A DNA stretch of 64,000 nt from Candidatus Nomurabacteria bacterium. Lineage in GTDB: Bacteria; Patescibacteriota; Minisyncoccia; Phycocordibacterales; UBA9973. Position 1 is the first letter of the stretch. Each line of letters starts with the position of its first letter. The notes beneath the pieces are model-generated. The model saw nothing but the letters and a program-made list of their open reading frames with translations. It did no database searches and was not told where the DNA came from. The translations under genes and the position numbers were made by a program. This document shows, piece by piece, positions 2,521 to 44,825 of the stretch. The stretch spans positions 139,920 to 203,919 of the forward strand of contig CP064973.1 of NCBI GenBank assembly GCA_016699365.1. Direction: 5' to 3'.

Positions 2521-2562
2521 ATAATATTCTTAATAGTATCAAACTTTTCAATCTAATTATAC

Positions 2563-3879: not shown

Positions 3880-3885
3880 ACATTA

Positions 3886-4533: not shown

Positions 4534-5273
4534 CTTCGAACTTTAGCATATATTCCAAAAAATGTTGAGAGTTTAGCCTTAAATGCTAATTTGTCAGTTT
4601 TACTATCAATCGAAATTCTAGGAAGTGAAAATAGATCAGATTGTTGATCCACAAACCCATTTATTGTTGTGACCGCACTACTATATCCTGCTTTCTGTAC
4701 AAAATCTATTTCTCTTTTACTAAACTTTCCACGTGGATATGCAAAAGAATTCTCACTCTTACGTGCAACTTCATTCATCAGTTCATTTACTGAAAGATTT
4801 ATTAATTCTCGATGAGTCATTGCATGTGAACCAATTTCAACTAATGGATTCTTAGATAATAGCACTATTTCATCTTCTACCAGTAATTTACATATTACCC
4901 CGTCAGATGTCTTAATTTCATTTGAATCAACACGTTTTGGCCAAAATAAAGTACTACAAATATTTCTCTTTTCAAACTCTACAAGTGCCGTAGTTAAATA
5001 ATCACGATGGCCATCATCACACGTTATGACAACTACTTTCCGTAATGATTCTTTATTTTTAATTTTTTGTACCATCTGGGATTGTGTCAAAAATACGTAT
5101 TCATTTTTCTTTAAGTAATCCAACTGCCACTCAAAATCTTCCAAAGGAACATTAAAGAACGCGTTTGGTAATTCAAAAGAGTGGTACATTAAAATTCTTG
5201 CCTTGTTATCGGTCAAGAAATAATCAAATAATATACACACTTTATAAAATAGTATTCTCAAAATAGATTTCAT
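4530..5273 (-). CDS. Polysaccharide deacetylase (NodB homology domain, CE4)
   Basis: VVVITCDDGHRDYLTTAL (the TFDDG-type motif 1) and H-rich downstream motifs. Overlaps neighbouring genes by 4 nt. Confidence 0.7.
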   Translation of the reverse strand: MKSILRILFYKVCILFDYFLTDNKARILMYHSFELPNAFFNVPLEDFEWQLDYLKKNEYVFLTQSQMVQKIKNKESLRKVVVITCDDGHRDYLTTALVEFEKRNICSTLFWPKRVDSNEIKTSDGVICKLLVEDEIVLLSKNPLVEIGSHAMTHRELINLSVNELMNEVARKSENSFAYPRGKFSKREIDFVQKAGYSSAVTTINGFVDQQSDLFSLPRISIDSKTDKLAFKAKLSTFFGIYAKVRR

Positions 5274-6316: not shown

Positions 6317-6320
6317 GACG

Positions 6321-6977
6321 TTATTTTCTTATCGGGTTTCTGGCAACAAATAAAAACATATGAGCAAATGAATACTTAAAAAGCCACGAAAGGAGCCAAA
6401 ACTTTTTTGAGACAATTGGAATAATCTCTACATCACTAAAATGTTTTTCCAAGATCGACCTAAACTCTTTATAGGTAAAATGATTTATGTGAGTTGGGTC
6501 TTGTAATGGTGTATGCTTTTTAATATTGAATATGAAGCGTATCTTTGACTGAAAACTATAAGCAAATGGAACAGAACCTACAAATAAACCGTTATCTTTC
6601 AAAACAAAGGAGGCTTTTTGGGTTATATTTTCTGGATAGTATAAATGTTCTAAAACTTCAGCTGCAACAACAACGTCAAATGTCTTTGCTTGTAAGCCCC
6701 AATCCCCATTCAGGTCAACCTGTCGCACTTTTATAGGAATAAGTGCCTGAGCACGATCTAATGCCTCTTGATCAATATCTAAGCCAAGCACGTTGTTCCC
6801 TTCAAAAAAATATTTTGTTAAAGCCCCATCACGACACCCAATGTCAAGAACATCTTTACCTTTTTCTATAACATCACGAAGAAATGGCCCTCTTTCTTGT
6901 TCCATGGTGATAAAATATTTTCCCCTACGATTAATGTTATGTTCGCTGTAAATCTTTTGAAGTGAATTAGATTCCAT
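6321..6977 (-). CDS. Class I SAM-dependent methyltransferase
   Basis: VLDIGCRDGALTKYF motif I; VLGLDIDQEA; VVVAAEVLEHL. Confidence 0.7.
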   Translation of the reverse strand: MESNSLQKIYSEHNINRRGKYFITMEQERGPFLRDVIEKGKDVLDIGCRDGALTKYFFEGNNVLGLDIDQEALDRAQALIPIKVRQVDLNGDWGLQAKTFDVVVAAEVLEHLYYPENITQKASFVLKDNGLFVGSVPFAYSFQSKIRFIFNIKKHTPLQDPTHINHFTYKEFRSILEKHFSDVEIIPIVSKKFWLLSWLFKYSFAHMFLFVARNPIRK

Positions 6978-6990
6978 AATTAATTTAAAA

Positions 6991-8142
6991 TTATTTATTA
7001 TAACTTATAGCTTTCTGTATATTCATTAATAAGACCTTATTATACTCTAATCTATCCCTATACTCATATTTATGTGGATTGTTAATCAGGTATTCTTTTG
7101 CTTCCTGATATATTTCAAATTTATCTAATAAATAGTCCGTTTTTTGAAAAAAACAAAGACTGTCTTTTGGCGAACAAATCCAACCACTCCTTCCTTCAAT
7201 TATAACTTCTGATGCAATTCCTACATCACTGGCCAAAACTGGAGTACCACAAATCAATGATTCAATAATTGTCAGACCATAACCCTCAAATCTTGAACTT
7301 ATCCAAAATAAATCAGCTATTTTATAATATGGAGCTAAGTCATTAATCCATGGTATAAAAAGTACACTTGATTCAATCTTTAGTCTTTTAACCTTCTCTT
7401 TTAGAAAAAGACTTTGTGATCCTGAGCCAATTATAACCAATCCAATCTTTTGTGGGTATTTTAAATCTAACTTGGAAAAAACATCTAGTGCCATGGAAAT
7501 ATCTTTTTCTATTTCTAATCTCGAGGCCATAAGAATCAAAAATCTTTCTTGTTTAAATAAATCTTTTTTTTGAATTTTTACATTGTTTAAAATTTCATAT
7601 TTTTTTACATCTATAAATACAGGGACAACGTCGATAGCGGCTGTAGTAATTTTTTTTTCTCTCAAACTATTCATTATTCGCTTTGAAACACATCTTATAG
7701 AATCTGCCTGTCTAATTACAAAATATGCAATAATAATCCTTATGTACTGTAAAAAAGTATTTTTAAAAAATGGAGAAAATAAGTCAACATGAATCTGAAT
7801 ATTAAGTGCACAACCTGTGATCTTTGATACAATAAACCCTACAAGGCCACACTCAAAAGGATCTTGTGTCGTAACAACGACATCTTTAAATTTATCTTTG
7901 GGTATATTTTTAATTATTTTAATACTTATAATAACCGCATCAATAATACAAAGTATTTTAAAAAAGGATTTCGTTGGGTAAAGTATAGTATTATTAATAT
8001 ACTGCTTGGCAAAAACATCCTTTTTTAAAGTAAATATAACAGCATGGTATTCATCAAAAGATTTTGCAATGCTTAAAACACGATCTCTGGTAGAACTCTC
8101 AGTAAATAATCTTCTTTCTGTGCCTATTGCTACAACAATCAT
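6991..8142 (-). CDS. Glycosyltransferase family 4/1
   Basis: EGYGLTIIESLICGTPVLASDVGIASEVI motif. Confidence 0.75.
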   Translation of the reverse strand: MIVVAIGTERRLFTESSTRDRVLSIAKSFDEYHAVIFTLKKDVFAKQYINNTILYPTKSFFKILCIIDAVIISIKIIKNIPKDKFKDVVVTTQDPFECGLVGFIVSKITGCALNIQIHVDLFSPFFKNTFLQYIRIIIAYFVIRQADSIRCVSKRIMNSLREKKITTAAIDVVPVFIDVKKYEILNNVKIQKKDLFKQERFLILMASRLEIEKDISMALDVFSKLDLKYPQKIGLVIIGSGSQSLFLKEKVKRLKIESSVLFIPWINDLAPYYKIADLFWISSRFEGYGLTIIESLICGTPVLASDVGIASEVIIEGRSGWICSPKDSLCFFQKTDYLLDKFEIYQEAKEYLINNPHKYEYRDRLEYNKVLLMNIQKAISYNK

Positions 8143-9140
8143 AAAATTATTCTTTCAAAGTCAGTAATAATATCTTCCCAGGTATTAATGTATCTACAAT
8201 TTAAAATATTTTCCCTTAAAGAGGAGTAAATTTTCGGGTCACATATTTTTGTTATACCATCTTTTATAGAATCTAAGTTAAAAGGTTCAATTAAAATACC
8301 CATATTCATAAACCGAATATTTAATCCTGTATGTCTAGTCAAAATGAATGGTTTACCAAAAGAAATACCCTCAAGCACTATATTGGGATTTACCTCCGAA
8401 AAAGAAGGAGCCGCAACAGCGTAAGATGTTTTAATTTGTTCTTGTATATCTTGGTGAGTAGAGATCTTATCAAAGATTTCTACTCCAACACCTTCTTTAG
8501 AAACTTCAGCCACAGCTTGTGTAAACATTGCATTATTTTTTAACTTTATTTTGCGAGAAGAAAGTATAATCTTTTTGTTTTGACTAATACCACAATCATT
8601 AACTCCACTAAAATAATTTTCAATAAGAACAATCTTAAAATCAGGAATCTTGTAATTTTTTAATAAAAAATTACCAAACCACATAGAATTAACAACTACT
8701 TTAGTTGATTTTTTTAGAGTGTATTTTGTCAAACCCTTTATAATATTTTCTTTCACAGAAAAATCATTTTTATCATAAAAAGACTCAAGGGTTATATTTT
8801 GACCTGTATGTTCAATATGATATTCCCAAAGAAAGTCACCACCTATTCTAATAAAGAATTTTTTATTAAACACAAAGCAAGCAATCGCAGTAGGGAATCC
8901 AACACTAACCGCATCTAATAAAATTACCCTATCTGCCCATAAAACTTTAGGTAAAATTTTTATAAAAAAACATATATGTCTAATTAAAGAAGGCATATTT
9001 CTTTCCCAGGTAAAACTAGAAACTTTCACACGGTGCCCTCTTGAGCGAAAACCTTCATTTAAATTAAAGGCATACTGAGCAGGCCCTCCGATTTCTGGAG
9101 GATAAATTCCTGTTGCGATAAGAATGGATTTTCTGTTCAT
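8139..9140 (-). CDS. Glycosyltransferase (GT4-like)
   Basis: N-terminal MNRKSILIATGIYPPEIGGPAQYAFNL (GT4 N-domain) and C-terminal EVNPNIVLEGISFGKPFILT. Confidence 0.6.
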   Translation of the reverse strand: MNRKSILIATGIYPPEIGGPAQYAFNLNEGFRSRGHRVKVSSFTWERNMPSLIRHICFFIKILPKVLWADRVILLDAVSVGFPTAIACFVFNKKFFIRIGGDFLWEYHIEHTGQNITLESFYDKNDFSVKENIIKGLTKYTLKKSTKVVVNSMWFGNFLLKNYKIPDFKIVLIENYFSGVNDCGISQNKKIILSSRKIKLKNNAMFTQAVAEVSKEGVGVEIFDKISTHQDIQEQIKTSYAVAAPSFSEVNPNIVLEGISFGKPFILTRHTGLNIRFMNMGILIEPFNLDSIKDGITKICDPKIYSSLRENILNCRYINTWEDIITDFERIIL

Positions 9141-9194
9141 TATGTTATGAGAATACTACAAGAAATACTTCTGCGCCAGGTATCAAAAATAGGA

Positions 9195-10358
9195 TTATTT
9201 AAATACCTCTTTCATCTCCCCTGCTATCAGATTCCAATCATATTTCTCAATCACCATCGACTTCGCATTTTCTATAATGCGATTTTTTTGTTCAGGATTA
9301 TTTTCAAATCTCATTATTGCTTCTGCAATACTTTTCGGGTTTTCTACTTCACAAAAGTATCCTGTCTCTCCATCTTTCAAAAAGTCTGGTATCCCACCGA
9401 CAGATGTTGCAACTACTGGCAAACTTATTGCCATAGCTTCTAGAAACGAATTGCCCAAGCCTTCTGAAAGTGAAGGTCTCACAAATACATCTGAAATTTT
9501 CAAATACTTTGGCATTTCACTGTGTGGTACATACCCGAGAAAAATAACCCGAGCTTTTAGATGTAAACTGTCAGCTTTTAGCTTTAAATCATTCTCGAGT
9601 GGGCCGTTGCCTAGCACCAGAAAAATAAAATTCTCTGGCAAATATTTTAGTGACTCGATTATATCCCCCACTCCGTTTTTCTTTACGAGACGGGACGTTG
9701 TAATAATCACTTTTTGAGATTTATTTATACCCAATTTTTCCTCTAAAGTCGTGATCTCTCTTAGATCATAATTTCTCGTAAATAAAGATACGTCCACTGC
9801 ATTTGGAATGACCACCGGAGTATCTCGAAATCCCATACTTTTACCGAAATCTGCTAGGTATGTAGATATAGCCTGTATGGTGTCAGCATGGGTAAAAATA
9901 CGCTTCCAGAGTGGGTATACGAGCGCTACACGACGCTTTATGTAGGAAATGGGATCTCCTTCCTGAAGTGTCAAAATGAAGCGTATTTGAGGGTATTTTT
10001 GCTTGAAAAACAAAGCTCCGAACCCAGCATAGTTGGCCATAATCGCCCACATACTTTGGAAACATATCTGCTTCTCGAGTCTCTTTGCTTTCATGTACGA
10101 CTGAAATGGAAATAGGTATTTTGAAATCTGAAAAAACACCTTTCCGACAACAGGAATACCCAGTAGATACGGCCCTACTCTGTGCACTGTAATATTGCCT
10201 ATTTGTTCAACTCGCTTCCGGTCAGTGCGCATAGTTACCATGAAAAAGCTCGCTTCGTCTTTGCCGATACGATCTGTGATCTCTTTCACTGCGACCTCTG
10301 CTCCCCCGACAAAGTTTGGGTAGTATACAAGCGAGAATATTAGAATCTTTTTATTCAT
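9195..10358 (-). CDS. Glycosyltransferase family 4
   Basis: MNKKILIFSLVYYPNFVGGAEV... and SLSEGLGNSFLEAMAISLPVVATSVGGIPDFLKDGETGY. Confidence 0.8.
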   Translation of the reverse strand: MNKKILIFSLVYYPNFVGGAEVAVKEITDRIGKDEASFFMVTMRTDRKRVEQIGNITVHRVGPYLLGIPVVGKVFFQISKYLFPFQSYMKAKRLEKQICFQSMWAIMANYAGFGALFFKQKYPQIRFILTLQEGDPISYIKRRVALVYPLWKRIFTHADTIQAISTYLADFGKSMGFRDTPVVIPNAVDVSLFTRNYDLREITTLEEKLGINKSQKVIITTSRLVKKNGVGDIIESLKYLPENFIFLVLGNGPLENDLKLKADSLHLKARVIFLGYVPHSEMPKYLKISDVFVRPSLSEGLGNSFLEAMAISLPVVATSVGGIPDFLKDGETGYFCEVENPKSIAEAIMRFENNPEQKNRIIENAKSMVIEKYDWNLIAGEMKEVFK

Positions 10359-10423
10359 AAGAAAAGTATACCCTCGGGTAAGTTTTTTACAAAATAACTA
10401 TTTAATATTAAATGTTTTGGTGC

Positions 10424-10451
10424 TAGACAAAATAAATTTTAGTGATATAAT
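10424..10451 (+). promoter_or_regulatory. Sigma70-like promoter (TAGACA-16-TATAAT) upstream of the esterase gene
   Basis: tagaca at 10424-10429, a 16-nt spacer, and tataat at 10446-10451. It lies about 35 nt upstream of the ATG at 10487 in a divergent intergenic region. Confidence 0.35.
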
Positions 10452-10486
10452 ATAAAAATTATCCTACTTTTTTTAAATAAAAAATA

Positions 10487-11377
10487 ATGAAAAAAATCAC
10501 AATACTCACATTACTTTCTTTAATTACAAGCATGTTCCTATTTACAAACGCACAGGCAGCGTTTGTTCCCTACGAATTAGAGACAATCTCTGACGTATAT
10601 TTTGGCACAGTCGATAGTACAGATCTCTACCTCGATGTAATCCGACCTATCGGTACCGCGTACGAAACTCCCGCTATCATATGGGTACACGGAGGAGGAT
10701 GGTCTGCTGGTACACGCTACCAAGAACCAGGTAGTGAGGCTTACACACTCGCAAGTTATGGCTACGCTATCGTCCCTGTAGACTACCGACTCACACCAAC
10801 AGGCACCCTACCTGAACAAATCCATGACGTTCGAGGAGCAATCCGCTTTATCCGAGCACATGCAGAAGAATACAATATCGATGCAGATCATATTGCAGTA
10901 CTCGGTTCGTCTGTCGGTGGAGCTATCGCTTACATGACAACACTTACAAATGATGATCCATTTTACTTTGGAGAAGTAGGAGGAAACCTAGACGAGAGCA
11001 ACGAAGTCCAAGCTGGAATAAACTTCTTCGGATCACTGTCAGTTGAAAGTATCGGAGAACTCAAACCTTCTCACAGAACAAAACTAGCAGACGCACTCGA
11101 CTGTGCCGATGTACTCACACTCGACTGTGCAGAAGAACTCGAGATCATCGACGTGAACTTACTCGCAAATGCAGGAGATGCTCCACTATATACCTTCCAT
11201 GGCAATGCTGACCTAAGTGTCCCCTACACACAGAGTGTCGAAATGTCAGCCGACATCACCGCACTCGGAGGAATATCTTTTCTCAAGATAATCCCAGGAT
11301 ACGATCATGAAATATCGATGATGAACACACAGATCCCTACCCTAAAAAGATTCTTCAAGAAATATTTGGGGGTGTAA
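10487..11377 (+). CDS. Secreted alpha/beta-hydrolase (esterase/lipase-like)
   Basis: Signal peptide MKKITILTLLSLITSMFLFTNAQA. IWVHGGGWSAGT oxyanion-hole motif and GSSVGG nucleophile elbow (GxSxG). Confidence 0.7.
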   Translation: MKKITILTLLSLITSMFLFTNAQAAFVPYELETISDVYFGTVDSTDLYLDVIRPIGTAYETPAIIWVHGGGWSAGTRYQEPGSEAYTLASYGYAIVPVDYRLTPTGTLPEQIHDVRGAIRFIRAHAEEYNIDADHIAVLGSSVGGAIAYMTTLTNDDPFYFGEVGGNLDESNEVQAGINFFGSLSVESIGELKPSHRTKLADALDCADVLTLDCAEELEIIDVNLLANAGDAPLYTFHGNADLSVPYTQSVEMSADITALGGISFLKIIPGYDHEISMMNTQIPTLKRFFKKYLGV

Positions 11378-11392
11378 AAATTGATTGTCATT

Positions 11393-11421
11393 AAAAAAAT
11401 CTACTTAGAGTAGATTTTTTT
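11393..11421. terminator. Bidirectional intrinsic terminator between convergent genes
   Basis: The hairpin aaatctact-tagag-tagattt is flanked by A and T runs. Confidence 0.5.
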
Positions 11422-11449
11422 AATGTTCCTAAAATATTTAAAAAGATTT

Positions 11450-12535
11450 TTATCTTTCATACACCTCAAAAGTTTTTTGAATCATTTGTTCTTTTGAAAA
11501 ATTACTTTTTACCCTCTCGTGCCCCAGCTCGCCCATTTTTTGTAAAGCAGGTTTATCTGAGAATATTTTTTCTAGGACCTCTGCCCATATTTCAGAACTA
11601 GAATCTCTAGGAATCAACACTCCGACATCACTCGACACTGCTTCAGATATTCCTCCAACATCACTTGCAAGCACTGCGCACCCCTCGGCCATCGCTTCGA
11701 GTATTGTCATTGGGAAACCTTCCCATAGTGTAGGTAAGACAAATACAGAACTTTCTCGTAAAGTTTTTCGTACAAGACTCCCATCGCACTCGCCCATCAT
11801 ATGTACATGTGCGCTCAAGTCCAACTTTTTAATTAATATCTCTAAATCAGGTCTTTGTGCCCCATCGCCTATAATAGACAGTTTCGGTAATTCCACACCT
11901 TTGTTTTTTAAAATATGAAGTGCGCGAATCAAAACTTCTGGTTGTTTTGGAGGAACAAGTCTACCAACAAAAACTATTGAATTTGTTTTCTCTGTAGATA
12001 TGTTGTCCACTATAGTTACGCCGTTATATACAGTAACCACTTTCTCATCTCGAAGTAACAAGAATTTTTTTATATTCTTTCTATCGTTTTCCGAAACAGC
12101 AATAATTTTTTTACAAAATCTAGATGCGATAAATTCTGCAACAATCGCAATTGGCTTTCTCCAGAGCGGAGCGCCTTTTGTAAACGCTATACCGTGAGCA
12201 GTGAAAATTGTTGGGTATTTTCTACCCAGAGCAAGTCTGCCGATAAACCCTGCAAAAGAACTATGAACTGAAATTATTTCAGGATTAAATTCTTTTGCGA
12301 CCACTCTCAAGTCTAGGTATGTTTGCAAAATAGAAAAAGGATTGAATGTATTACCAAGTTTTGAAGATACATACACTTCAAAGCCGTATTTGGTAGCTTC
12401 GTCTACCAAATACCCCTCACCTCCAGTTACGAGCAAGACCTGATCTCCTTTTTCTTTATGACTCAGCAAAAGTTCGTGGAGTACACTCTGCGCTCCACCA
12501 CGTTCTGCTTTTGTGATTAGATATAAAATACGCAT
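11450..12535 (-). CDS. Glycosyltransferase family 4
   Basis: MRILYLITKAERGGAQSV... and EGFPMTILEAMAEGCAVLASDVGGISEAV. Confidence 0.8.
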   Translation of the reverse strand: MRILYLITKAERGGAQSVLHELLLSHKEKGDQVLLVTGGEGYLVDEATKYGFEVYVSSKLGNTFNPFSILQTYLDLRVVAKEFNPEIISVHSSFAGFIGRLALGRKYPTIFTAHGIAFTKGAPLWRKPIAIVAEFIASRFCKKIIAVSENDRKNIKKFLLLRDEKVVTVYNGVTIVDNISTEKTNSIVFVGRLVPPKQPEVLIRALHILKNKGVELPKLSIIGDGAQRPDLEILIKKLDLSAHVHMMGECDGSLVRKTLRESSVFVLPTLWEGFPMTILEAMAEGCAVLASDVGGISEAVSSDVGVLIPRDSSSEIWAEVLEKIFSDKPALQKMGELGHERVKSNFSKEQMIQKTFEVYER

Positions 12536-14583
12536 TAAATTTTATCGAAGAAATATAAACTAACTTCAGGAAAAGATTTTATATTTTTATCTATATAAGA
12601 TACAACTTGCTGACTCTTTTCTATGTTTGGATTGATCGCAAGTCCTTTTTGCGCCCACTCACGAGCAAGATTAAATTTACCTTGATACAAAGACAGGACA
12701 GATTTCATCCAATACCCTTGTGGAATCTCAGGATTCATCTCTATAGCTTTGTCTAATACCAAACTTGCTTCCTCGAGCCTATTTACCCCAAGCAGATTGC
12801 TATACATCAACACATCGGCGTAGTTAAAATGCGCGCGAATATCATTTGGATGACTGTCTAAATAATTTTTGTATTCATTTGCAAATATCTCAAGTTCTTT
12901 TTTGAAGTTTTCTTGGTTTTTTGGATTTTCGATTGACGCTGGATTTTCTGATATTCCTCTTTGGAAATCAGTCGATGTTCTCCAGAGAAAAGAAGGCAGA
13001 TCCATAGGTGAACCAAAAAGTACAGGATACATCGGCAATCTCTTCTCAGCACTTCCAACTGTACGAATAGTTCCATTTGTATGTTCAGCTCGAGCTATAG
13101 GCATAGTCCCAGCGAAAAATGCCCAACCAAAATATCCAATCAAACAAACTGCACCTATATATTTTATATATACAGGAACAGCTAAAGTATGATTACTTTC
13201 TTTATTGTTTTCGATATAAGTTTTACGGTATAGATTTGAAGCTAGTGCAATCATAATCAAAACCGCAACCAGAGATATAGTGGTATCAAAAGCTGTTTGA
13301 AGTTCCGCTAAGTGTCCTAAAAAGTAAATTATCAATATTGAAGCTAAGAGTTGATCATTTTTTTCTTTTGATTTTAGTAACACATAAACTAGTGAACCCA
13401 GTACAACAAAATACACAAGCAGGTAGAAAGACAACCCAATATATCCAGTGTCTACTGCTTGATCGATAAATACATTGTGTGCTCTGTCGAACCAAGCTTC
13501 GTTACCGAAACGCTCTTCTAGAAGTCTATTGTCATAATTTTGTTCAAACCCTCGATCAAAGTTGTCAGTTCCCCATCCGAGCAATGGTCTTTCCTTTATC
13601 ATATTTGCAGATAGTTCCCAGACTATAGGTCTAGCACTTGTTGCCTGACTCAAATAAACTCCTCTTAGATACCCATCTTCAGCCAAGAAAGATCTTATCA
13701 GCACAGCAGAAGAGACTAGGGTTATTACTAGAGCACCCCATATCAGCCCTCTCCTTATCTTTGCACTTGATATTTTTGAACCGAAATAAAAAACTACTAA
13801 AGCAAAAAGTGATATAGCTAAAACATACGCACCCGCACGAGCTTCTCCGACAATCCCCATAGGATTAGTAACCAAATCCACCTGCCCCTTCCAAACCTTA
13901 TGACTTATGATATAAGGGTTTATAAAAAATGCGACAGGCAAAAGTCTATGCCACCACTTTTTTTCACTACTTTCTGTCGAGCGAACAAGGTATATAGAAA
14001 TCAAAAATGCAGCAAACAAATACATTGCAGCGAAAGTCGAGTTACCAAAAGAAAACCCATCCCACAACCTTGTTTTAAATATAAGACCCAATCCTTCCGG
14101 ACCTAGTAGAGATAGTACTGAAAAAATACCTGATGAAACTGCAAAAACCTTCAAGAAACCTCTTTGGACTTCTTCGTCTTTAAATAAATATGACAAGAAG
14201 TAGTAAATCATCACAAGATGAGAAAAGAAAAATATACCACTTACGCGTGCTGCCTTAGACCAAAAAGATATTGATGGATCTACACCGTTTAGACCAGCTA
14301 AAACCAAAACAATAAAATACATAGACAAAACTAAGGCTATAGGTGACTTGAAAAGTTTCACTTCCCTGTTTTTTTTAAATAGAGATATGGCAAATATGAT
14401 AGCCAGGATCTCAATTATAATCATCAGAAAAATAGCCCGGGATGATGTTCCGTTGTACAAATAACCTTTAAATAAAATTATTGGGAAAAGTGCAATAAAT
14501 CCCACCAAAACATATCTGATTAGTTCAAATATTCCACTTTTTAATTGATTTTTAGACATGCTTTTATTATACGCACCATTCAT
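12535..14583 (-). CDS. Polytopic membrane protein with Wzy_C/O-antigen-ligase-like domain and C-terminal TPR repeats (candidate oligosaccharyl/polysaccharide ligase)
   Basis: 682 aa. At least 10 hydrophobic segments are followed by a soluble C-terminal region with TPR-like repeats (...ASLVLDKAIEMNPEIPQGYWMKSVLSLYQGKFNLAREWAQKGLAINPN...). The architecture matches O-antigen ligase family proteins with TPR. Confidence 0.6.
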   Translation of the reverse strand: MNGAYNKSMSKNQLKSGIFELIRYVLVGFIALFPIILFKGYLYNGTSSRAIFLMIIIEILAIIFAISLFKKNREVKLFKSPIALVLSMYFIVLVLAGLNGVDPSISFWSKAARVSGIFFFSHLVMIYYFLSYLFKDEEVQRGFLKVFAVSSGIFSVLSLLGPEGLGLIFKTRLWDGFSFGNSTFAAMYLFAAFLISIYLVRSTESSEKKWWHRLLPVAFFINPYIISHKVWKGQVDLVTNPMGIVGEARAGAYVLAISLFALVVFYFGSKISSAKIRRGLIWGALVITLVSSAVLIRSFLAEDGYLRGVYLSQATSARPIVWELSANMIKERPLLGWGTDNFDRGFEQNYDNRLLEERFGNEAWFDRAHNVFIDQAVDTGYIGLSFYLLVYFVVLGSLVYVLLKSKEKNDQLLASILIIYFLGHLAELQTAFDTTISLVAVLIMIALASNLYRKTYIENNKESNHTLAVPVYIKYIGAVCLIGYFGWAFFAGTMPIARAEHTNGTIRTVGSAEKRLPMYPVLFGSPMDLPSFLWRTSTDFQRGISENPASIENPKNQENFKKELEIFANEYKNYLDSHPNDIRAHFNYADVLMYSNLLGVNRLEEASLVLDKAIEMNPEIPQGYWMKSVLSLYQGKFNLAREWAQKGLAINPNIEKSQQVVSYIDKNIKSFPEVSLYFFDKI

Positions 14584-18263: not shown

Positions 18264-20470
18264 ATGTTTATCATGGCAAAAAATATAGCTAAAAATAGCA
18301 AGAAGGGTGATGTTGGTAAAAAGACCTCTTCTGATGTAAAAAAAGTGCCTGTTTCTAGATTAAAAGATGAGACAAAAAATGGAGTTTACGCGATATTGTG
18401 TCTGACTATAGCATTCTTTCTACTTCTATCTCTTTGGAACAATGCTGGCGTAGCTGGATCATTTTTCTACAATTTATTTTCAAAATTATTGGGTGTTGGA
18501 TATTATCTACTTCCAATATTTTCTATCGCTCTTGGTATATCTTTTCTTAGATCCGAAAGACCTAGTTTGGCACTAACGCACTCCATAGGAACTGCACTCT
18601 TTTTTATATCTGTTTTAGGTATTATCGATATTGTAGTTTTATCAAACACCTTACCGGGTGGATACATAGGACGGATAATCGCATGGCCTTTTGTCGCACT
18701 ATTTGATACATATGCAAGTATTTTATTTTTAGGAGCACTACTAATAATCTCAATATTTATATTATTTGATACTCGACCAAACATGGGCACACTTCCTGTT
18801 CGGGTTAGAAATTTCTTGTTTGGTAAAAAAGACAACGAAGAAGAAATGGAAACTGAGGCATATGTAGCCAAACCAGAAGACACCACAAATCCTGAGCCAG
18901 AAAAAATAGAAGAAATAAAAAAATCTGAACCAGAAACAAAAAAGAAAGATGGCAAAGATTCTGTGGCAGACGAAGAATTCGTTTTAGCTAAATCAAAAAA
19001 TAAAGCTAGTACTTACACTCCCCCACCTCTATCACTTCTAGAACCAGACAAAGGCAAGCCAAATGTTGGAGACATAAAAGCAAACGCAAATATAATTCAG
19101 CGCACTTTAGCAAACTTTGGAATTATAGTAGAGATGGATGAGATAACTATCGGACCTACTGTTACAAGATACGCACTGAAGCCTGCCCAAGGTGTGAAGC
19201 TTTCTCGTATCGCAGCACTGCAAAATGACCTAGCTCTCGCACTTGCCGCCCATCCTATACGTATGGAGTTGCCTATTCCTGGAAAGTCACTCGTGGGAAT
19301 AGAGATCCCGAACAAAACAAAATCAACTGTCGGTCTCGGTGCACTTCTTGCAGATCCGAACTTTATAAATTCTCCAAAACCTTTGATATTTGCACTTGGA
19401 AGAAATGTTGCGGGTAAGCCTACTCATATAAATATAGCCAAAGCTCCTCATGCCCTTATTGCGGGTACAACTGGATCTGGTAAATCTGTCACCATACACG
19501 CACTTATTACTTCACTTCTATATAGAAACGGACCTGAGGACCTAAAATTCATAATGGTGGATCCAAAACGCGTAGAACTAACTCTATACAACAAGATCCC
19601 CCACCTTCTTACGCCTGTTATTACTGACGCCAAGAAATGTATATTGGCGCTTAAGTGGGCAGCAAAAGAAATGGAAAGACGTTATGACATACTACAGAGT
19701 CATTCTGTTCGAGATATTGAGTCATACCATGACAATATATATGCCAAAAAACCAAAAGATAGTGAAGAGATTATGGACCGTATGCCTTATATAGTTATCA
19801 TAATCGACGAGTTGGCTGATATTATGCAAGCTTATCCTCGTGAACTAGAGAGTGCTATCGTTCGCCTAGCACAAATGTCTCGCGCTGTCGGAATACATCT
19901 TATACTCTCTACTCAGAGACCTGAGGTAAACGTGATCACAGGACTTATCAAGGCAAACGTACCTACTCGTATAGCTCTACGTGTTCCTACTCAAGTAGAC
20001 TCTCGAACAATTCTAGATACAAGCGGAGCTGAAAAACTTCTAGGAGCTGGAGATATGCTCTTCTCTGGAGGAGAAGGTCAACCAGAACGTCTACAATCTG
20101 CATTTATATCAGAAGACGAGGTCAAAAAGTTGTAAAATATCTATCAGAAGCATTTAGAAACGAAGTTCCAGGTGACGATATAGCTTTTTCGGGTCCCCTA
20201 ACAAGCGAACCTAGTATATTTAGCGCGACTCTAGACAACGATACTAGCGAGGATGATGATTTATATGAAGAAGCTAGGCAAATAGTTATAGAAACACAGA
20301 AAGCTTCAACTTCATTCCTTCAGAGAAAACTTGGTATAGGCTACGCAAGAGCAGCTAGACTAATAGATATCCTAGAAGAAAGAGGTGTAGTCGGTCCTGG
20401 TAATGGAGCAAAACCTAGAGAGGTCCTGGAAAAAACTGCTGAAGCAGAGCAATCTGGATTTACTGGATAA
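18264..20470 (+). CDS. ftsK: DNA translocase FtsK/SpoIIIE. It is interrupted by a -1 frameshift in the A5 run at 20124-20128, and the gamma domain is encoded in another frame up to 20470.
   Basis: N-terminal TM segments, Walker [10 protein letters not shown] and Walker [12 protein letters not shown]. The track ORF ends ...SEDEVKKL*, but the -1 frame continues [17 protein letters not shown]...[59 protein letters not shown] (the FtsK gamma winged helix). One extra A in caaaaag restores ...[13 protein letters not shown]... Confidence 0.8.
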
Positions 20471-20473
20471 AAT

Positions 20474-20827
20474 ATGACCTTCAAACAAAAAGCTGGTATG
20501 GGTGCAGGCATTGTATTCGGAATAATAGTTTTTTTATATGCAATTTTTAGACTTCATGACCTAATATTCGGAATAAATATAAAAGTTGAAGGCATAGAGA
20601 ATGGTATGGTTGTCACAGATCCAAATATACAAATAGATGGTAATGCAAAAAGGGCTAGTTTTGTCACCCTAAATGGAAATGAAGTATTTATATCAAAAGA
20701 AGGAGATTTTAGTGAACCAATAGTACTTTTACCAGGAGAGAATGTGGTATCATTGTATGTGAAAGATAAATTCGGTAAAGACACAACCGAGATATATAAA
20801 GTAGTCTATTTAGTAAGTAATCAATAA
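20474..20827 (+). CDS. Hypothetical single-pass membrane protein
   Basis: 117 aa with an N-terminal TM ([18 protein letters not shown]) and a beta-rich C-terminal domain. Confidence 0.4.
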
Positions 20828-20831
20828 ATTT

Positions 20832-21889
20832 ATGGCATTCAAAAAAACAGCCCCAAAAGAAAAGAAGCAAGTAGGAATGGAGATTGAAGATACAATTCGT
20901 TCCATTCAAACAAAATTCGGAGAAGGTGCAATTATGAAACTTGGTGACACACCAAAAGTAGACATAAATACTATTTCTACTGGATCGCTCGGGCTTGATA
21001 TGGCTCTTGGAGTTGGTGGTGTCCCCCGCGGACGTATAATAGAAATATTTGGACCAGAATCATCTGGAAAAACAACTCTTGCGCTTCACATAGTTGCCGA
21101 AGCACAAAAGACTGGAGGTGTTTGTGCATACATAGACGCAGAACATGCAATGGATCCAGTTTATGCAAAAAATCTTGGTGTTAAAACAAATGAACTTCTA
21201 ATTTCTCAACCAGACACAGGAGAGCAAGGTCTTGAAATATGTGAATCACTTGTACGATCTGGAAAAATCGACGTAGTAGTAATAGACTCAGTTGCAGCTC
21301 TTACTCCAAAAGATGAAATCGAAGGTGATATGGGCGCTCAGCACGTGGGCAAACAAGCTCGCCTAATGTCCCAAGCTTTGCGAAAACTTACAGCAATCGT
21401 TGCTCGATCAAAGACAACTGTTATTTTCATAAACCAAATAAGAATGCAGATTGGCGTAATGTTTGGAAATCCTGAAACTACACCAGGAGGAAAGGCGTTG
21501 AAATTCTATACATCAGTTCGACTAGATATACGTCGCATAGCTCAAATTAAAAAGGTGAAGAAGTTGTAGGAGGGCGCACACGAGTAAAAGTAGTAAAAAA
21601 TAAAGTTGCCGCTCCATTTAAACAAACTGAGTTCGATATAATATACGGAGAAGGAATATCCCGCGAAGGTGAACTAATGGCTTTAGGTGAAAAACTTGGA
21701 ATAATCACAAAATCTTCAGGTGGTTCATATGAGTACAAAGGCAAAGATGGCGAAGGTGCAGTGAAACTTGGACGAGGATATGACGCAACACGTACGTTTT
21801 TGAAGGAAAATTCAAAACTATCTAATGAAATTTTGAAACAAGTTAAATCTCGCTTTGGAGAAATACAAGTTTCAAGTAGTGGAGAGTAA
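20832..21889 (+). CDS. recA: Recombinase RecA. It is interrupted by a -1 frameshift in the A5 run at 21549-21553.
   Basis: [13 protein letters not shown] Walker A and a typical RecA core. The track ORF stops at ...[12 protein letters not shown]. The -1 frame continues [45 protein letters not shown]..., the canonical RecA C-terminal half, ending at 21889. One extra A restores ...IKKGEEVVG... Confidence 0.85.
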
Positions 21890-21912
21890 TAAAAAAAGAC
21901 ACTAGCAAGAAT

Positions 21913-22056: not shown

Positions 22057-22419
22057 TTATAGAAATACACTATCCAATGTATTTGGAGTAGATGTAATCA
22101 TATTTTTTCTATATGAATTTAAAAAATACCTAACAACTAGCACAGACAGTAGTAGCACAATCATCAAAACGAACTGCTTGTTATCAAATGCAGAATATAT
22201 AATTCGGGCGACTTTTCTTGAAGCGATCAAAAGACACAATATCCCAATTAAAGTAAAATATGGGCTCCATAGGTCTTTTGATTCTGCCAAATACTCCCCT
22301 ACTAATGCATAAAACATTCCAACAATGTATACGCAAATATAAAAAAATATAATTACAAAACTATATATTTCCATAAAAATAGCTTTTCTAGATTGTACTC
22401 CTTGTATAAAATATATCAA
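22057..22419 (-). CDS. Hypothetical membrane protein (3-4 TM)
   Basis: 120 aa, strongly hydrophobic. Confidence 0.35.
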   Translation of the reverse strand: MIYFIQGVQSRKAIFMEIYSFVIIFFYICVYIVGMFYALVGEYLAESKDLWSPYFTLIGILCLLIASRKVARIIYSAFDNKQFVLMIVLLLSVLVVRYFLNSYRKNMITSTPNTLDSVFL

Positions 22420-22428
22420 CCAAAAGAT

Positions 22429-22459
22429 TAAACCCGCTCCGCGAATGCGGAACGGGTTT
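22429..22459 (-). terminator. Intrinsic terminator
   Basis: aaacccgctccgc-gaat-gcggaacgggttt imperfect hairpin. Confidence 0.45.
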
Positions 22460-22464
22460 GTGAA

Positions 22465-22686
22465 TTAGTTTTCCTCAATGCCTTTTGCAATAGCACCCAG
22501 CATCACCGCAAAAGTGATTGTAGATGGAATTGCAAATACAAAGGCTCCCGCAAATACAGTTACCTCTCCTAGAATAGATAGCGGGGTTCCGTATGCACTT
22601 TCTATGACTAAAGTCATAAGTGCCATAATGAACACGAATGCAGCAATGTAAGCCACACAAGAAAATAAGATTACCAATATTCTCAT
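22465..22686 (-). CDS. Hypothetical small membrane protein (2 TM)
   Basis: 73 aa hydrophobic. Confidence 0.35.
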   Translation of the reverse strand: MRILVILFSCVAYIAAFVFIMALMTLVIESAYGTPLSILGEVTVFAGAFVFAIPSTITFAVMLGAIAKGIEEN

Positions 22687-22743
22687 ACGTTTTATTTTTT
22701 TATATTATGTCATATATAGATAGATAAGTCAATAAAATAACCG

Positions 22744-22772
22744 TTGCAAAATAAGGCTGTTTGGGCTAGAAT
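22744..22772 (+). promoter_or_regulatory. Sigma70-like promoter (TTGCAA-17-TAGAAT) upstream of efp
   Basis: ttgcaa at 22744-22749, a 17-nt spacer, and tagaat at 22767-22772, about 45 nt upstream of the efp ATG. Confidence 0.35.
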
Positions 22773-22816
22773 CTTTGTGTTATTAGCTAGAGCCTAACGG
22801 CCTAATTTCATTCAAC

Positions 22817-23407
22817 ATGTCTATACTTTCCTACAGTGAAATAAAAGAAAAAAAGATCATTATTTGGAACGAGGAGCCTTTTGAGGTCCTTGAAAGTCAC
22901 GTTGCTCGCACTCAACAACGCAAACCTCAAAACCAAGTAAAAATGCGCTCACTTATAAACGGTCGCGCAGTAAACGAAACTTTCCGCTCATCTGATACAG
23001 CGAGTGAGGCAGATTTGGAGAAACGTGAAGTAAAATTCCTATATACAAACAAGGGTGAGTTCTGGTTCGCAGACCCTAGCGACCCAAGCAATCGTTTTAA
23101 ACTCGATGAAAAAATACTAGGATCAAATGTAAAATTCCTAAAACCAAATGAGAACGTAACAGCTCTCGTATGGACAGATGAGGATGATGAAGAGAAAATC
23201 ATAAGCATCAATCTTCCTATTAAGATGACATATGTTGTTAAGGAAGCTCCACCCGCAATCAAAGGCGACACTCGAACTGGAGGAAACAAGGTTGTCACTC
23301 TTGAAAACGGTGCTACTATAAACGCTCCCCTGTTTATTGCCGAAGGCGATAAGATAATCGTAAATACAGAAACTGGTGAGTATGTCGAGCGAGCTTCCGA
23401 TAAATAA
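22817..23407 (+). CDS. efp: Translation elongation factor P
   Basis: ...IIWNEEPFEVLESHVARTQQRKPQNQVKMRSLINGRAVNETFRSSD... aligns with the EF-P N-terminal KOW-like domain. Three-domain length (196 aa). Confidence 0.85.
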   Translation: MSILSYSEIKEKKIIIWNEEPFEVLESHVARTQQRKPQNQVKMRSLINGRAVNETFRSSDTASEADLEKREVKFLYTNKGEFWFADPSDPSNRFKLDEKILGSNVKFLKPNENVTALVWTDEDDEEKIISINLPIKMTYVVKEAPPAIKGDTRTGGNKVVTLENGATINAPLFIAEGDKIIVNTETGEYVERASDK

Positions 23408-23422
23408 TCTTTACAAAAAAAG

Positions 23423-23448
23423 AAAACCCGCTGTATAGCGGGTTTTTG
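23423..23448. terminator. Bidirectional intrinsic terminator between convergent efp and the ABC exporter
   Basis: aaacccgc-tgtata-gcgggttt. Confidence 0.6.
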
Positions 23449-23451
23449 TAT

Positions 23452-25212
23452 TTAATTTTGCTCTAAGTTCGCATACTGACGTTCCCAAAGTGAGCGATAA
23501 AGCCCATCAGGTAGATTCATAAGTTCATTATGAGTTCCACGTTCATATACTCGTCCTCCATCGATAACAATGATCTCATCGAGCTGAGCGACAGTAGTAA
23601 GCCTATGGGCTATAACAAGCATTGTCTTGCCTACCATCTCACGAAGCACCATTTGTACTTCATTTTCAGTTTCGGTATCAAGTGCGCTCGTCGGCTCATC
23701 AAGCATGAGTATCTCTGCATCTTTCAAAAATGCAGCAGCGATAGCAAGTCTTTGGCGTTGTCCGCCAGAGAGTTTTACTCCCCGCTCACCTACAAGTGTG
23801 TCATATCCTTTTTCCAATTTCTCGGTTATAAAGCTATGACATGATGCACGTTTTGCAGCAGCTACTATCTCTTCCATTGTTGCATCCGGTTTTCCAAACG
23901 CAATTATTTCTTTTATTTTCCTATGCGGGAAACTTGGATCTTGTGATACATAACTCAAAGTTTGCCTAAGCTCTTTTTGGGTAATATCACGTATGTCCAC
24001 TTTTCCAATAGTAATCGATCCATATCCATCAGGTATATCGAATTGTCTTAGCAAGAGTCTAGTAATAGTTGTCTTACCTGCACCTGTTGTGCCCACAAAT
24101 CCATATCTTTTTCCTGGCTTCAAGCAAAGATTCAAGTGATCCAATACCACCGAATCTTTATTTGGATATTTAAATGACACATCGTTGAAGCAAATCGTAC
24201 GATCACCATTGAGCTTTTTAGGCTCTGGTGTGTCTTGAATCGTAGGATCTTCACTCAACACAATCGACATGTCATATGCATCTGCGAGAGATTTGCGAAT
24301 ATTTGTTATAGCCCTTGAAACTTGCCACATATAACTAGTAAGTGTACCGATATATGAATAGATCAATACTACTGTACCAATAGTTACCAACCCAAGGGTC
24401 GCTTGTCTGATAACTATATACATAGACACAAGCTTGAACGTAAGGACGAGCAGGGATTGTATTGCATTGAATTTATTCCCTAGAAGCCACGCCTTTGCTC
24501 TATGCTTGTATTCATCGTAAGTGGTTTTTTTAAATTCATCGTGCTCTCTGTCTTCAGCGGTATACGAATGAATCATATGAACACTTCCAATAATATCACT
24601 CATGTGTCCTGTTGTATGAGAATCTGCATCTGCAGATCTCAAGTCATATGGCGTTCTCTTTTTAGAAAAATAAAACGACAATAACAAGAACGACAAGGTC
24701 CATACAACAAATACAAACCCCAGTCCAGGCATGGTACTAAATACCACAAAGAATACTCCGCATAATATTATAAAAACACGAAGTAACGTAAAAACAAATT
24801 CATCGAATACTGTTTCTGTGGTCCCAGCAAACCTCCTACTTTTAGCGACTATAGAACCTGCAAACGTACTTAGGAAAAAATCCGTACTACGTTTAAGCAA
24901 ATCCTTGATTGCATAGTCTTTAAGGTATTTTATTATCTTGGTCTCCGTATGAACGATAAACCAGTCTCCAAGTCTATTTGCCATCCAAGCAAATACACCT
25001 CCAACCGCAATAAGACTAAAAAATACAAGCGTGTCACCTTTTTTTGCGACAATAGAATCAATCAACATTTTCCAGAAAACTGGCTCAAGGACTGACTCAA
25101 TAAATATCGCAATACCGTAAAATAGCATTGTTGCAAATGCAATTTTACGGAAAGCATAAAAAGCTTTTTTCCAATGCTTCCATACAGGAGCAAAAAGTTG
25201 TTTCTGTTGCAT
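23452..25212 (-). CDS. ABC exporter with fused permease and ATPase, MsbA/type I exporter-like
   Basis: Six N-terminal TM helices. Walker A GTTGAGKTT, ABC signature LSGGQRQRLAIA and Walker B ILMLDEPTSALD. Confidence 0.85.
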   Translation of the reverse strand: MQQKQLFAPVWKHWKKAFYAFRKIAFATMLFYGIAIFIESVLEPVFWKMLIDSIVAKKGDTLVFFSLIAVGGVFAWMANRLGDWFIVHTETKIIKYLKDYAIKDLLKRSTDFFLSTFAGSIVAKSRRFAGTTETVFDEFVFTLLRVFIILCGVFFVVFSTMPGLGFVFVVWTLSFLLLSFYFSKKRTPYDLRSADADSHTTGHMSDIIGSVHMIHSYTAEDREHDEFKKTTYDEYKHRAKAWLLGNKFNAIQSLLVLTFKLVSMYIVIRQATLGLVTIGTVVLIYSYIGTLTSYMWQVSRAITNIRKSLADAYDMSIVLSEDPTIQDTPEPKKLNGDRTICFNDVSFKYPNKDSVVLDHLNLCLKPGKRYGFVGTTGAGKTTITRLLLRQFDIPDGYGSITIGKVDIRDITQKELRQTLSYVSQDPSFPHRKIKEIIAFGKPDATMEEIVAAAKRASCHSFITEKLEKGYDTLVGERGVKLSGGQRQRLAIAAAFLKDAEILMLDEPTSALDTETENEVQMVLREMVGKTMLVIAHRLTTVAQLDEIIVIDGGRVYERGTHNELMNLPDGLYRSLWERQYANLEQN

Positions 25213-27635: not shown

Positions 27636-27701
27636 CCCTCTACTATCTCATAAAATTGAGCAAAAAGAAAAAGCCTGATTAATTTATCAGACTTTAAAAA
27701 A

Positions 27702-28574
27702 TCACTGAGTGATTAATTCTTTTTTTCCTCTATATAGAAAAGAAAGAATTAATCCAAATACTATAGCTATTAAGCTAAAAATCCAAAAATCAAACCCTGT
27801 ATATATGTTGTACATAAAAATATATGTTATGCATATAATTGGATAGAAATAAAATCTAATTCGATTTTTAGTAAAATTTTCATTAAATCTTTTATTAACT
27901 GCATATATATAGAATATAGTGCAAAGAATTAACAGAATCCAAACAATCAAATTTGAAGCTCCAAACGGCATAATACTATCCGTATTCACAGCTAAAAAAA
28001 TTATTGTCAGTAATCCGATTATAAAACTTATAAAAATCATTCGTAAAGAGTGAGCTCTATATCCATACTTACTAATTAATAGAAAAAACATCGCAGAAAA
28101 AAAAGTTATCCCCAACAAAAAAATAAGATTCTCGAAAGCAAATTTATTTTTTATTTCTACAACTTCTTTTCCGATTACCCTTCCTTCCTTTTTATCCAAA
28201 AGTAAATTTAACTCGGTATTTACATATTTTCCAAAAAAACCATAGTCAGAAAAAGTTCGGGTTTCTGAAATTTTTTTATATGATATATACCCGTTTGTAT
28301 AAATATTCCCCATTTGAAAATTATTTAAGTTCCATTTTGAATCAGATAGGACAAATGACTCTACTGGATACTCAAACGAGCGATTAATCGTACAATTATT
28401 GATGGAGTCACACGTCTTCTGGTCGAGTTGTATGTTATGGATATACCATATCTCATCCCTAACCCTTTTTATCTCTACTCCGAGCTCTTTTTTATCGAGA
28501 ACCACTTCGGACATTGCAGAAAAATAAGCCAATATTGCTACAGCAAAGAACATAATTTTTTTCATAATAATCAA
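27702..28574 (-). CDS. Hypothetical polytopic membrane protein with an N-terminal extracytoplasmic domain
   Basis: Signal/TM, a roughly 140-aa soluble region, then 5 TM segments. Confidence 0.35.
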   Translation of the reverse strand: MIIMKKIMFFAVAILAYFSAMSEVVLDKKELGVEIKRVRDEIWYIHNIQLDQKTCDSINNCTINRSFEYPVESFVLSDSKWNLNNFQMGNIYTNGYISYKKISETRTFSDYGFFGKYVNTELNLLLDKKEGRVIGKEVVEIKNKFAFENLIFLLGITFFSAMFFLLISKYGYRAHSLRMIFISFIIGLLTIIFLAVNTDSIMPFGASNLIVWILLILCTIFYIYAVNKRFNENFTKNRIRFYFYPIICITYIFMYNIYTGFDFWIFSLIAIVFGLILSFLYRGKKELITQ

Positions 28575-28648
28575 TTTTATTTTACAAGATATTACAATAT
28601 ATAAATATTTTTGTCAAAAAGAAAAACCGGAACGATCCGGTTTTATAC

Positions 28649-41352: not shown

Positions 41353-44300
41353 TTAGTTTATTCTAATCTTTTCCTCACCATCTCCAAATGTGATATCCGA
41401 AACTCCTGCGGTCTTTTTCAAATCTTCTTCAAACCCTTGAACTGTTTCCTTGTATTCATTTGCAAGCGTAAGCTTAATAACATCACTAGGTTTCAAGCCT
41501 TTTTCTTTTCGCATGTCTTGGATAGAGCGGAGTAGCTCACGATAGTCTCCTTCACGTTTTAGTTCGGGAGTTATATTTGTGTCGAATGAAACTTCACTTC
41601 CAACTTCAACATCTTTTACATTTAGCTCGTCTTTTATTATTTCTACAAACTCAGAAGATAATTTTTCTTTTACAAAGAAAGTAGCGAGTGGCTGTCTTAG
41701 AGGAATATTTAATTTTTTTCGAATAGAATTTCCTTCAGTACAAAGATCTCGAACTTTTTGCATCTCTGATATTATTTCTTTATTTATTTTTCCTGCTTTT
41801 GGCCAATCACACAAATGAACTGACTCGACATCACTCTCAAGTTTCAATTTCTGCCACATGTCCTCTGCACTAAATGGTGCAAATGGTGCAATAATTTTCG
41901 CCAATGTTTTTAATACAACATACATAGTCATCTTTGCTGAAAGTGACCCGTCTTTCAATCTGTCTCGTGAACGGCGAAGGTACCAAGTCGAAAAGTCGTC
42001 GATAAAGTCGCGTGTTGCACGCACAGGTTCGAGAAGCTTGAAATTGTCTAGGTTATTTGTTGAAAGTTCTACAAGCTGGTCTAGCCTAGCGAGAATCCAT
42101 TGATCCAAAACAATTGTTGTAGATCTAACTTCTTTTTCTGCATCTATCTCAGCATCTCTTTCTCGATAAAGTTCATAGAAAGCTAGTACGTTGTATAGAA
42201 GTCCGAAGAACTTACGATGAAGATCAAGCACTGTTTTCTCGTCGAAGTTTTTTGAGTCTCCTGGCTGGTTTACAGAATACATCCACAATCTGAGTGTATC
42301 TGCACCATACTTCTCTATCATCTCCCAAGGCTCCACGATGTTGCCAAGTGACTTACTCATTTTCTTGCCCTCTGCGTCTAGGATGTGCCCAAGACAGATT
42401 ACATTCTTGTATGCCTTGCCAGTGCCCATAAGCGCTCCTATGGCGTGAAGTGTATAGAACCACCCTCGAGTCTGGTCGATGGCCTCACAGATGAAATCTG
42501 CTGGATAACCACGAGTCTTTTTGAAGAATCCTTTTTAGGCTGAAAAACATTTTTGTCATTTCCAAATGGATAGTTGTCTTGCGCGAAAGGCATCGCACCA
42601 GAGTCGAACCACACATCCATAACCTCTTTTACACGCTTGAACTTTTTACCGTCTTTTTCTAATTCAACAGAGTCGATAAATGGCTTATGTAAGTCGAGTT
42701 CAAAGTTTTCGTTGTGAGGAAGAGGAGTAAAATCTAATTTTCTAAATTCTCCATTTTGTAAATATCTATATTCGCTTTCTTTTTGAACTATTCTTAAAGA
42801 TTCTTCTGGTGTATATCCGCTTGCACCAGAAAAGAGTAGCCATGCTGGCCCACCATGTGTGACTATAAGAATATTTTTTCCAGCATATTTACTATCTAGT
42901 TCATACAGAAAATTTGTTACTCTTTTCTTTATTTCATTATGAGATTCCCCTCCAGGCATTTTCTTATCGAAATTTTCTGGTATTTTAGGTAAAGCTTTGT
43001 GGAATTCTGACCATTTTGTTCCACCAAAATCTCCAGGATTAAATTCTCCCAGCTCATCATGATAAGAAATACTTTTTTCATCTAACCCTAGAACATCTTT
43101 TACAATACTAGATGTTTCTTTGGTTCTGATAAATGGCGAAGAAACAATAAAATCTATTTTTTCAGACTTCAACATCTCTGCATATTTTTTTACCTGCAGC
43201 TTACCATTTTCATTTATATGGTCTTTTGCATCTTTATTTACACTTATTGAACCAGTTAGATTATTGTCAGATTCTCCATGCCGCATTACAAAATATTTAT
43301 TTCCACTTTTCTTTGTATATTTCTTGAGTGTATCGACAGAGTCGACAACTATTCGCTCGCCGTCTTCTGCCTCCCATATCGGAAGTGGGGTTCCCCAATA
43401 CCGCTCACGAGATATCGCCCAGTCTTTTACTTCACGAAGCCATTCACCAAAACGTCCGTCTTTTATATGACTTGGTTCCCATTTAATACTATCGTTTTCT
43501 TTAAGTAATTGATTCCTGAGTTTTGACATTCCGATATACCAAGAATCCCGCGCATAATATATAAGCGGAGTTTTGCATCTCCAGCAGTGTGGATATGAGT
43601 GCTCGTATTTTTCTTTCTTGAATAGAAGCCCCCGGTGTGCGAGGTCCTTAATGATATCTATCGCAACTTCTTCATCCTTTACAAATCGTCCTGACAGAAA
43701 ATCCATACCTTCCAAGAAATGTCCATCTTCTTTTACCAAATGGAACTTCGGCATACCGACTTTTGTTCCGAGTTCGAAGTCTACTTGTCCGTACATGACT
43801 GCGGTGTGCACCAAACCTGTTCCGTCAGTAGTTGTAACGAAGTCTGCAGAATGCACTTTGTATGCATTTTTCATATCTATATCTTTTGGAGCAAGATTTT
43901 TGAAATACGAATACAGTGATTCATATGATAATCCAACAAATGCTTTGCCTTTCAATTCCTCTATGATTTCATATTCACCTTCGACTATAGAGAGTCTTTC
44001 TTTAGCAAGAATCAGAATATCGTTTTCTTTTTTTATTTTTACATAATCGATATTCTCCCCCACCGCAAGACCTACGTTTCCCGGAAGTGTCCACGGAGTT
44101 GTAGTCCATGCTAGAAAATATGTATTCTCCTGACCAACAACTTTAAACTTTGCAGTCACCGATAAATCTTTGTCATCTTGATATCCTTGTGCGAGCTCAT
44201 GCGAAGAAAGTGCAGTTCCACAACGTGGACACCAAGGAAGAACTTTGTAGTCTTTGTATAAAAGTTTTTTCTTTTCTGTTTCTGCCAAAATATTCCACAC

Positions 44301-44780
44301 AGATTCGATATATGAATTGTGATACGTGACATATGGATTCTTGTGGTCCACCCAGTATGCAACACGGTCAGTGAACTTTTCCCATTCGTCGATATATTTC
44401 CAGACAGATTCACGGCACTTCTGATTGAATTTCTCTACACCATATTCCTCGATTTCCTTTTTGGATTTGAGACCCAGTTCTTTCTCGACCTGGAGCTCCA
44501 CAGGAAGTCCATGTGTGTCCCAGCCACCTTTGCGACGAACATGGTACCCTCGCATAGTTTTGTATCGAGGTATAGCATCTTTGAAACAGCGAGGTTCGAG
44601 ATGGTGCAGTCCTGGCATACCGTTTGCAGTCGGAGGTCCGTCGAAGAATACGAACTCCCCTTCTGGAGAATCCTTTGCAAGGGTTTTACTGAAAATATCT
44701 TTCTCCTGCCACAATTTCAAAACTGCTTCTTCTCTTAAAGCTGATTCGGATTTATTTGGTTTTTGGTTTTCTTCTGACAT
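41353..44780 (-). CDS. ileS: Isoleucyl-tRNA synthetase. It is split by a -1 frameshift in the T5 run at 42532-42536 and carries an inserted histidine-phosphatase (PGAM-like) domain.
   Basis: N-terminal PPTANGMPGLHH, CP1 editing motif TTTPWTLP, then DWAISRERYWGTPLPIW, the DVWFDSG motif, and KMSKSLGN in the downstream ORF. One extra A restores ...[48 protein letters not shown]... Confidence 0.85.
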
Positions 44781-44825
44781 ATTGACAAATTATATTATAG
44801 ATGGTAATTTTAAAAAAAATATTGT

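Follow-up and report, generated by a model that had tools for sequence, protein, structure and literature searches.

The break in recA on contig CP064973 is, with high probability, a consensus error in which one A is missing from a run of six (A6), and not a biological frameshift. The window, by which we mean the whole 64-kb stretch (64,000 nucleotides) of that contig analysed here, carries similar breaks in ftsK and ileS. We propose that the real recA would read AAA AAA at this point, coding for Lys-Lys, with one A dropped in the deposited assembly, and that ftsK and ileS would have suffered the same single-base homopolymer deletion, as probably did the A-run just after recA. If the run of five (A5) is a consensus error, the organism would therefore make a normal 352-aa RecA. 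A homopolymer-length error was also the explanation preferred in a preliminary description of this DNA, and it gains its support from A6 at all three sites in conspecific assemblies, from a recA that is otherwise identical to theirs, and from a low-coverage Nanopore source.

The recA frame on the + strand (20832-21569) is closed by a premature TAG at 21567-21569, where it reads ...CAA ATT AAA AAG GTG AAG AAG TTG TAG and its translation ends in ...IKKVKKL and the stop. The -1 frame, starting from 21554 (GGT GAA GAA GTT GTA...), stays open until a TAA at 21887-21889 and codes for the remainder of RecA. The parts of the locus are as follows.

20832..21569, + strand: recA upstream reading frame, 245 codons, premature TAG; Pfam RecA profile positions 3-228 of 262, E 8.6e-121
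21549..21553, + strand: A5 run in recA, probable site of the missing base; A6 in every other assembly of the species (15 loci)
21554..21889, + strand: recA downstream part in the -1 frame, 111 codons plus stop; RecA profile positions 228-262 and RecA_C

The upstream Pfam match ends at profile position 228 and the downstream match resumes at 228, and the two pieces are therefore one gene cut cleanly at a single point; this continuity rules out a chance open reading frame. The downstream piece matched RecA positions 228-262 (E 1.1e-10) and RecA_C positions 1-56 of 57 (E 9.1e-9), so that over both pieces the core profile PF00154 and the C-terminal profile PF21096 (RecA_C) were found, and direct reading of the protein places the Walker A (P-loop) ATP-binding motif GPESSGKT at residues about 74-81. 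Once repaired, the protein matched a 352-aa RecA with E 1.6e-220 and had full-length homologues throughout the Paceibacteria (CPR/Patescibacteria group). Coordinates, frames and Pfam matches all agree with the initial claim that recA is broken at an A5 run and continues in the -1 frame.

When neighbouring same-strand open frames were scanned, exactly three genes in the 64 kb proved convincingly split, namely recA, ftsK and ileS. The pieces of the other two are listed here.

18264..20135, + strand: ftsK upstream frame, reading GTC AAA AAG TTG TAA, with the premature TAA just past the A5 run at 20124-20128
20129..20470, + strand: ftsK downstream part in the -1 frame, FtsK_gamma domain, E 1.3e-29 (Pfam)
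42438..44780, - strand: ileS upstream frame, 780 codons, reading CCT AAA AAG GAT, with the A5 run at 42532-42536 (T5 on the + strand)
41353..42531, - strand: ileS downstream part in the -1 frame; repaired protein of 1142 aa with no internal stop

All three genes have AAA AAG in the upstream frame and continue in the -1 frame, and in each the conserved protein is regained by one extra A or by a -1 slip on AAG; the shared AAAAAG context reported earlier is thus an accurate description of all three. For ileS the -1 frame goes on as GFFKKTRGYPADF, and because a TAA lies in that frame directly upstream of the run, the shift must fall at the run itself. The truncated 780-aa IleRS is on record as GenBank QQR76827.1. 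Neither the 245-aa truncated RecA nor the 623-aa truncated FtsK had an exact match on record, and we know of no other assembly with the same break.

Conspecific assemblies were retrieved through the window's EF-P, a neighbouring 117-aa protein and SHMT, and were 98-99.5% identical to the window. The set consisted of three NCBI MAGs (GCA_020047435.1, GCA_018061905.1 and GCA_017991335.1), many ENA SPAdes assemblies and several Logan contigs; their ileS region was reached through SHMT. The run was A6 at each of the three sites: at recA in 15 conspecific loci (RecA of 352 aa), at ftsK in 12 (FtsK of 735 aa), and at ileS in the two conspecific loci covering the site, which read CCT AAA AAA GGA TTC (IleRS of 1145 aa). 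The preliminary description had stated that changing A5 to A6 restores RecA, and insertion of one A indeed gave a recA of 1062 nt encoding 352 aa, with 0 differences over those 1062 nt from at least 13 independent conspecific assemblies. The repaired protein is on record exactly as MBP6854632.1 and MBP9772356.1 (NCBI; likewise in ENA and Logan entries). Over 20510-21905 the window showed no substitution relative to the conspecifics and two one-base deletions, both in A-runs and with the window shorter each time. One run in this stretch lies outside the coding sequence.

21891..21897, + strand: intergenic A7 run just 3' of recA; A8 in 15 other assemblies

This run is probably a further undercall. 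A scan of JGI metagenomes with a pattern across the recA site that allowed A5 or A6 returned 0 matches, and so is silent on either length.

More distant relatives carry the same intact frame. Among the matches listed from a GTDB scan with RecA, which were more distant relatives only and included neither the source genome nor the species' own representative, more than 40 species-level relatives had IKKG in frame, mostly as AAA AAA GG. Downstream of the break, comparison with recA from a relative whose DNA is 94% identical gave 15-17 synonymous changes and 0 non-synonymous ones; purifying selection thus still acts on this part of the gene in the shifted frame. An old pseudogene is ruled out by the 0 non-synonymous changes downstream together with the 0 differences from intact recA alleles.

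The origin of the contig is consistent with an error of this kind. CP064973 is the circular 705,143-bp MAG EsbW_18-Q3-R4-48_MAXAC.200_cln, placed in Paceibacteria, order UBA9983_A, family UBA9973, with coverage of 9.4x Illumina and 20.3x Nanopore (Singleton et al. 2021, Supplementary Data 3, PMC8012365). For the MAGs of that study, Nanopore reads were assembled and the result was polished with Racon, twice with medaka and once more with Racon, this time using Illumina reads (PMC8012365). In assemblies of this type, above all below about 40x, residual homopolymer indels are a documented cause of fragmented gene calls (PMC9262707). We infer that base-calling of Nanopore R9.4.1 data would under-count homopolymers, that at about 20x Nanopore coverage Racon and medaka would fail to remove some of these deletions from the consensus, and that a single Racon round with Illumina reads at about 9x would not mend every one of them. 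At recA the indel lies inside a homopolymer, the other length occurs with otherwise identical sequence in independent short-read conspecific assemblies, and the source is a long-read assembly of modest coverage in which ftsK, recA and ileS all go from A6 to A5.

Long runs are frequent in the window, with 77 A6, 34 A7 and 4 A8 runs as well as 93 T6, 53 T7, 7 T8 and 1 T9. A genome-wide count of runs of A6 or longer had been suggested earlier on the grounds that a deficit would imply systematic undercalling; made on the window, it revealed no deficit, as A6, A7 and A8 runs are plentiful. Because only 2 of the approximately 88 comparable A6/T6 runs (about 2%) are shortened in the window, however, such a test is without power. 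Between 16 and 34 kb, 2 of 25 comparable A6 runs were shorter than in the conspecifics, one A9 run and the A8 run that follows recA were shorter too, and near 33084 there is one A5-to-A4 difference that lies in a divergent stretch and is ambiguous. From 45.2 to 62.3 kb, by contrast, no indel was found in 17 kb although there are 76 A or T runs of length 6 or more. Three of the shortened runs fall within 1.8 kb around recA. The homopolymer error is thus sporadic and locally clustered, not systematic. This uneven spread is a point against the error reading unless it has a local cause; the clustering around recA may, for instance, mark a stretch of the draft that Illumina polishing left uncorrected. 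Every one of the shortened A-runs at 20124, 21549, 21891, 23415 and 42532 (the last on the - strand) has C or T before it and G after it, a context which may reflect a sequence-context bias of the base-caller or chance.

One of these runs is genuinely variable among strains.

23415..23421, + strand: intergenic A7 run; A9 in 13 other assemblies, with A7 confirmed by a same-strain contig

Two Logan contigs from run SRR11674038 were 100% identical to the window, L107 over 5739-7080 and L118 over 22191-24411. Together they amount to 3.6 kb in strain-specific regions, with the recA, ftsK and ileS sites outside both. We take SRR11674038 to be a short-read run, since noisy long reads could not yield 2.2 kb of perfect identity. 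The exact match of both contigs means that the assembly is accurate where same-strain contigs exist, which weighs somewhat against the error reading. As L118 agrees with the window at 23415, the A7-versus-A9 difference is a true homopolymer-length polymorphism between strains and not an error, and it follows that a run length unlike that of other strains need not be an error.

Other parts of the window vary among strains as well. At 22476-22687 there is a small hydrophobic 73-aa ORF (22465-22686, - strand; no Pfam match) where conspecifics have a 76-aa ORF; the segment could not be aligned to conspecifics by megablast, both flanks are about 99% identical, and the window's version is confirmed by L118. 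An insertion at 27683-28616, absent from conspecifics, holds a 290-aa ORF (27702-28574, - strand; no Pfam match) between tatD and a 162-aa gene, and is bounded by the direct repeat CAAAAAGAAAAA at about 27660 and about 28614. The most strain-variable part is the glycosyltransferase and Wzy-like polymerase (PF04932) cluster at 1-14400, with 90-97% identity to conspecifics and a Wzy_C protein of 682 aa in the window versus 397, 434 and 674 aa in other assemblies.

The ileS region is a further case. Positions 41400-45240 are about 90% identical to conspecifics, whereas the adjacent 45.2-62.3 kb is 99.5% identical, and this suggests a divergent or recombined allele in the strain. Look-up of the neighbouring proteins of this region (193 aa, 140 aa and GlyRS) found nothing on record, which we attribute to the apparent divergence of that part of the window. 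A 225-aa query across the ileS junction returned only distant partial IleRS with at most 71% identity over most of the query, reaching up to 83% only where the matching fragment spanned less than half of the query; known close matches were not returned. Within ileS, 42834-43295 (- strand) encodes an inserted histidine-phosphatase domain (RHGESDNN ... THGGPAWLL; PF00300 His_Phos_1) that sits between two parts of the tRNA-synt_1 core. The domain was present in all of the best 120 IleRS matches from related Paceibacteria, and by sequence it is a conserved, lineage-wide insertion.

It is improbable that the deletions are real in the strain or in a sub-population, so that recA, ftsK and ileS would be recent pseudogenes or the consensus would have caught a defective minority variant. 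Run-length variation between strains does exist, as the L118-confirmed A7 versus A9 at 23415 demonstrates; flanking DNA shows 0.5-2% divergence between the window strain and the other assemblies, and 0 non-synonymous changes downstream in recA would also fit a very recent event. Under such an account, however, ileS, recA and ftsK would each have been inactivated by an independent deletion, all three within 25 kb and one of them in the gene for the indispensable IleRS, in a strain abundant enough for a closed circular assembly. It must also accommodate a recA with no other change relative to intact alleles and a source that is exactly the type of assembly that yields such artefacts.

Less probable still is a true A5 state in which recoding lets the genes be expressed, whether tRNA-Lys slips back by one base (-1) from AAG to AAA at AAA_AAG or RNA polymerase slips on the A-run. 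In bacteria, -1 slippage is known to occur at A_AAG and A_AAA_AAG (e.g., in dnaX and IS elements); the upstream frame reads AAA AAG at each of the three breaks, and slipping back by one base there gives the conserved protein exactly (recA ...IKKGEEVV...). The sites themselves, however, are U_AAA_AAG, C_AAA_AAG and U_AAA_AAG; a full X_XXY_YYZ heptamer is present at none, and only the A-site codon can re-pair. Compared with shuffled sequence, the 70 nt downstream show no stronger folding (z = -0.43, +1.75 and +0.21 at the three sites), and reading of the sequence at the three sites found no Shine-Dalgarno-like element at a consistent upstream position. Nor is AAA AAG avoided: Lys codon usage predicts about 33 in-frame pairs in the 64 crude gene calls, and 38 occur. 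Of these, 35 are read through normally, including nine perfect A_AAA_AAG heptamers (in FtsK, EF-P, SHMT, ArgRS and others) and one pair just 12 nt downstream of the ileS break. The shift is shared by no relative examined. Expression of recA, ftsK and ileS through tRNA-Lys slippage at AAA_AAG with no stimulatory element is accordingly a reading to which we give hardly any credence, and were it true, several essential genes of a CPR bacterium would depend on frameshifting. Slippage during transcription fares no better, as known tracts need roughly 8-9 A or more and an A5 run is far below that length. The recoding or pseudogenisation of recA that the preliminary description had held out as alternatives is thus unsupported, with no hairpin, no heptamer, no conservation, and a recA otherwise identical to intact alleles.

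A consensus error in recA has a value that is practical, not biological, although the A5 runs would matter greatly if true. Residual single-base homopolymer deletions persist in a "closed" genome that serves as reference for an uncultured Paceibacteria lineage, and they break about 3 of 64 genes in the window. The breaks in recA, ftsK and ileS could be mistaken for gene loss or recoding in a reduced CPR genome. Claims that the CP064973 MAG is missing functions in recombination, division or tRNA charging should first be compared with conspecific short-read assemblies.

Among known systems, the joined pieces correspond to bacterial RecA (PF00154 plus PF21096), forming a complete, typical 352-aa protein with 80-91% identity to other Paceibacteria RecA and no difference left once the missing base is put back. 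The likeness to dnaX-type -1 frameshifting at A_AAA_AAG extends to AAA AAG in the upstream frame and to a -1 slip that gives the correct protein. It differs here in the lack of a full heptamer, a stimulatory hairpin or conservation, and in a motif that is common and read normally elsewhere; furthermore, the shifted product would be the sole functional product and not an alternative isoform. In the insect endosymbionts Buchnera and Blochmannia, poly(A) transcriptional slippage at tracts of about 9 A or longer rescues genes whose frameshifts are confirmed by sequencing. The window resembles these in that A-runs interrupt essential genes of a small AT-rich genome, but its run is only 5 A and its relatives have an in-frame A6. 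The closest counterpart is the Nanopore R9.4.1 assembly with homopolymer indels (PMC9262707), from which nothing material differs, the oddities here being three events within 1.8 kb and a G after each run. The two share the single-base deletion in A or T runs of at least 5, the several unrelated genes affected and the low coverage, and here the repaired gene is identical to that of conspecific short-read assemblies.
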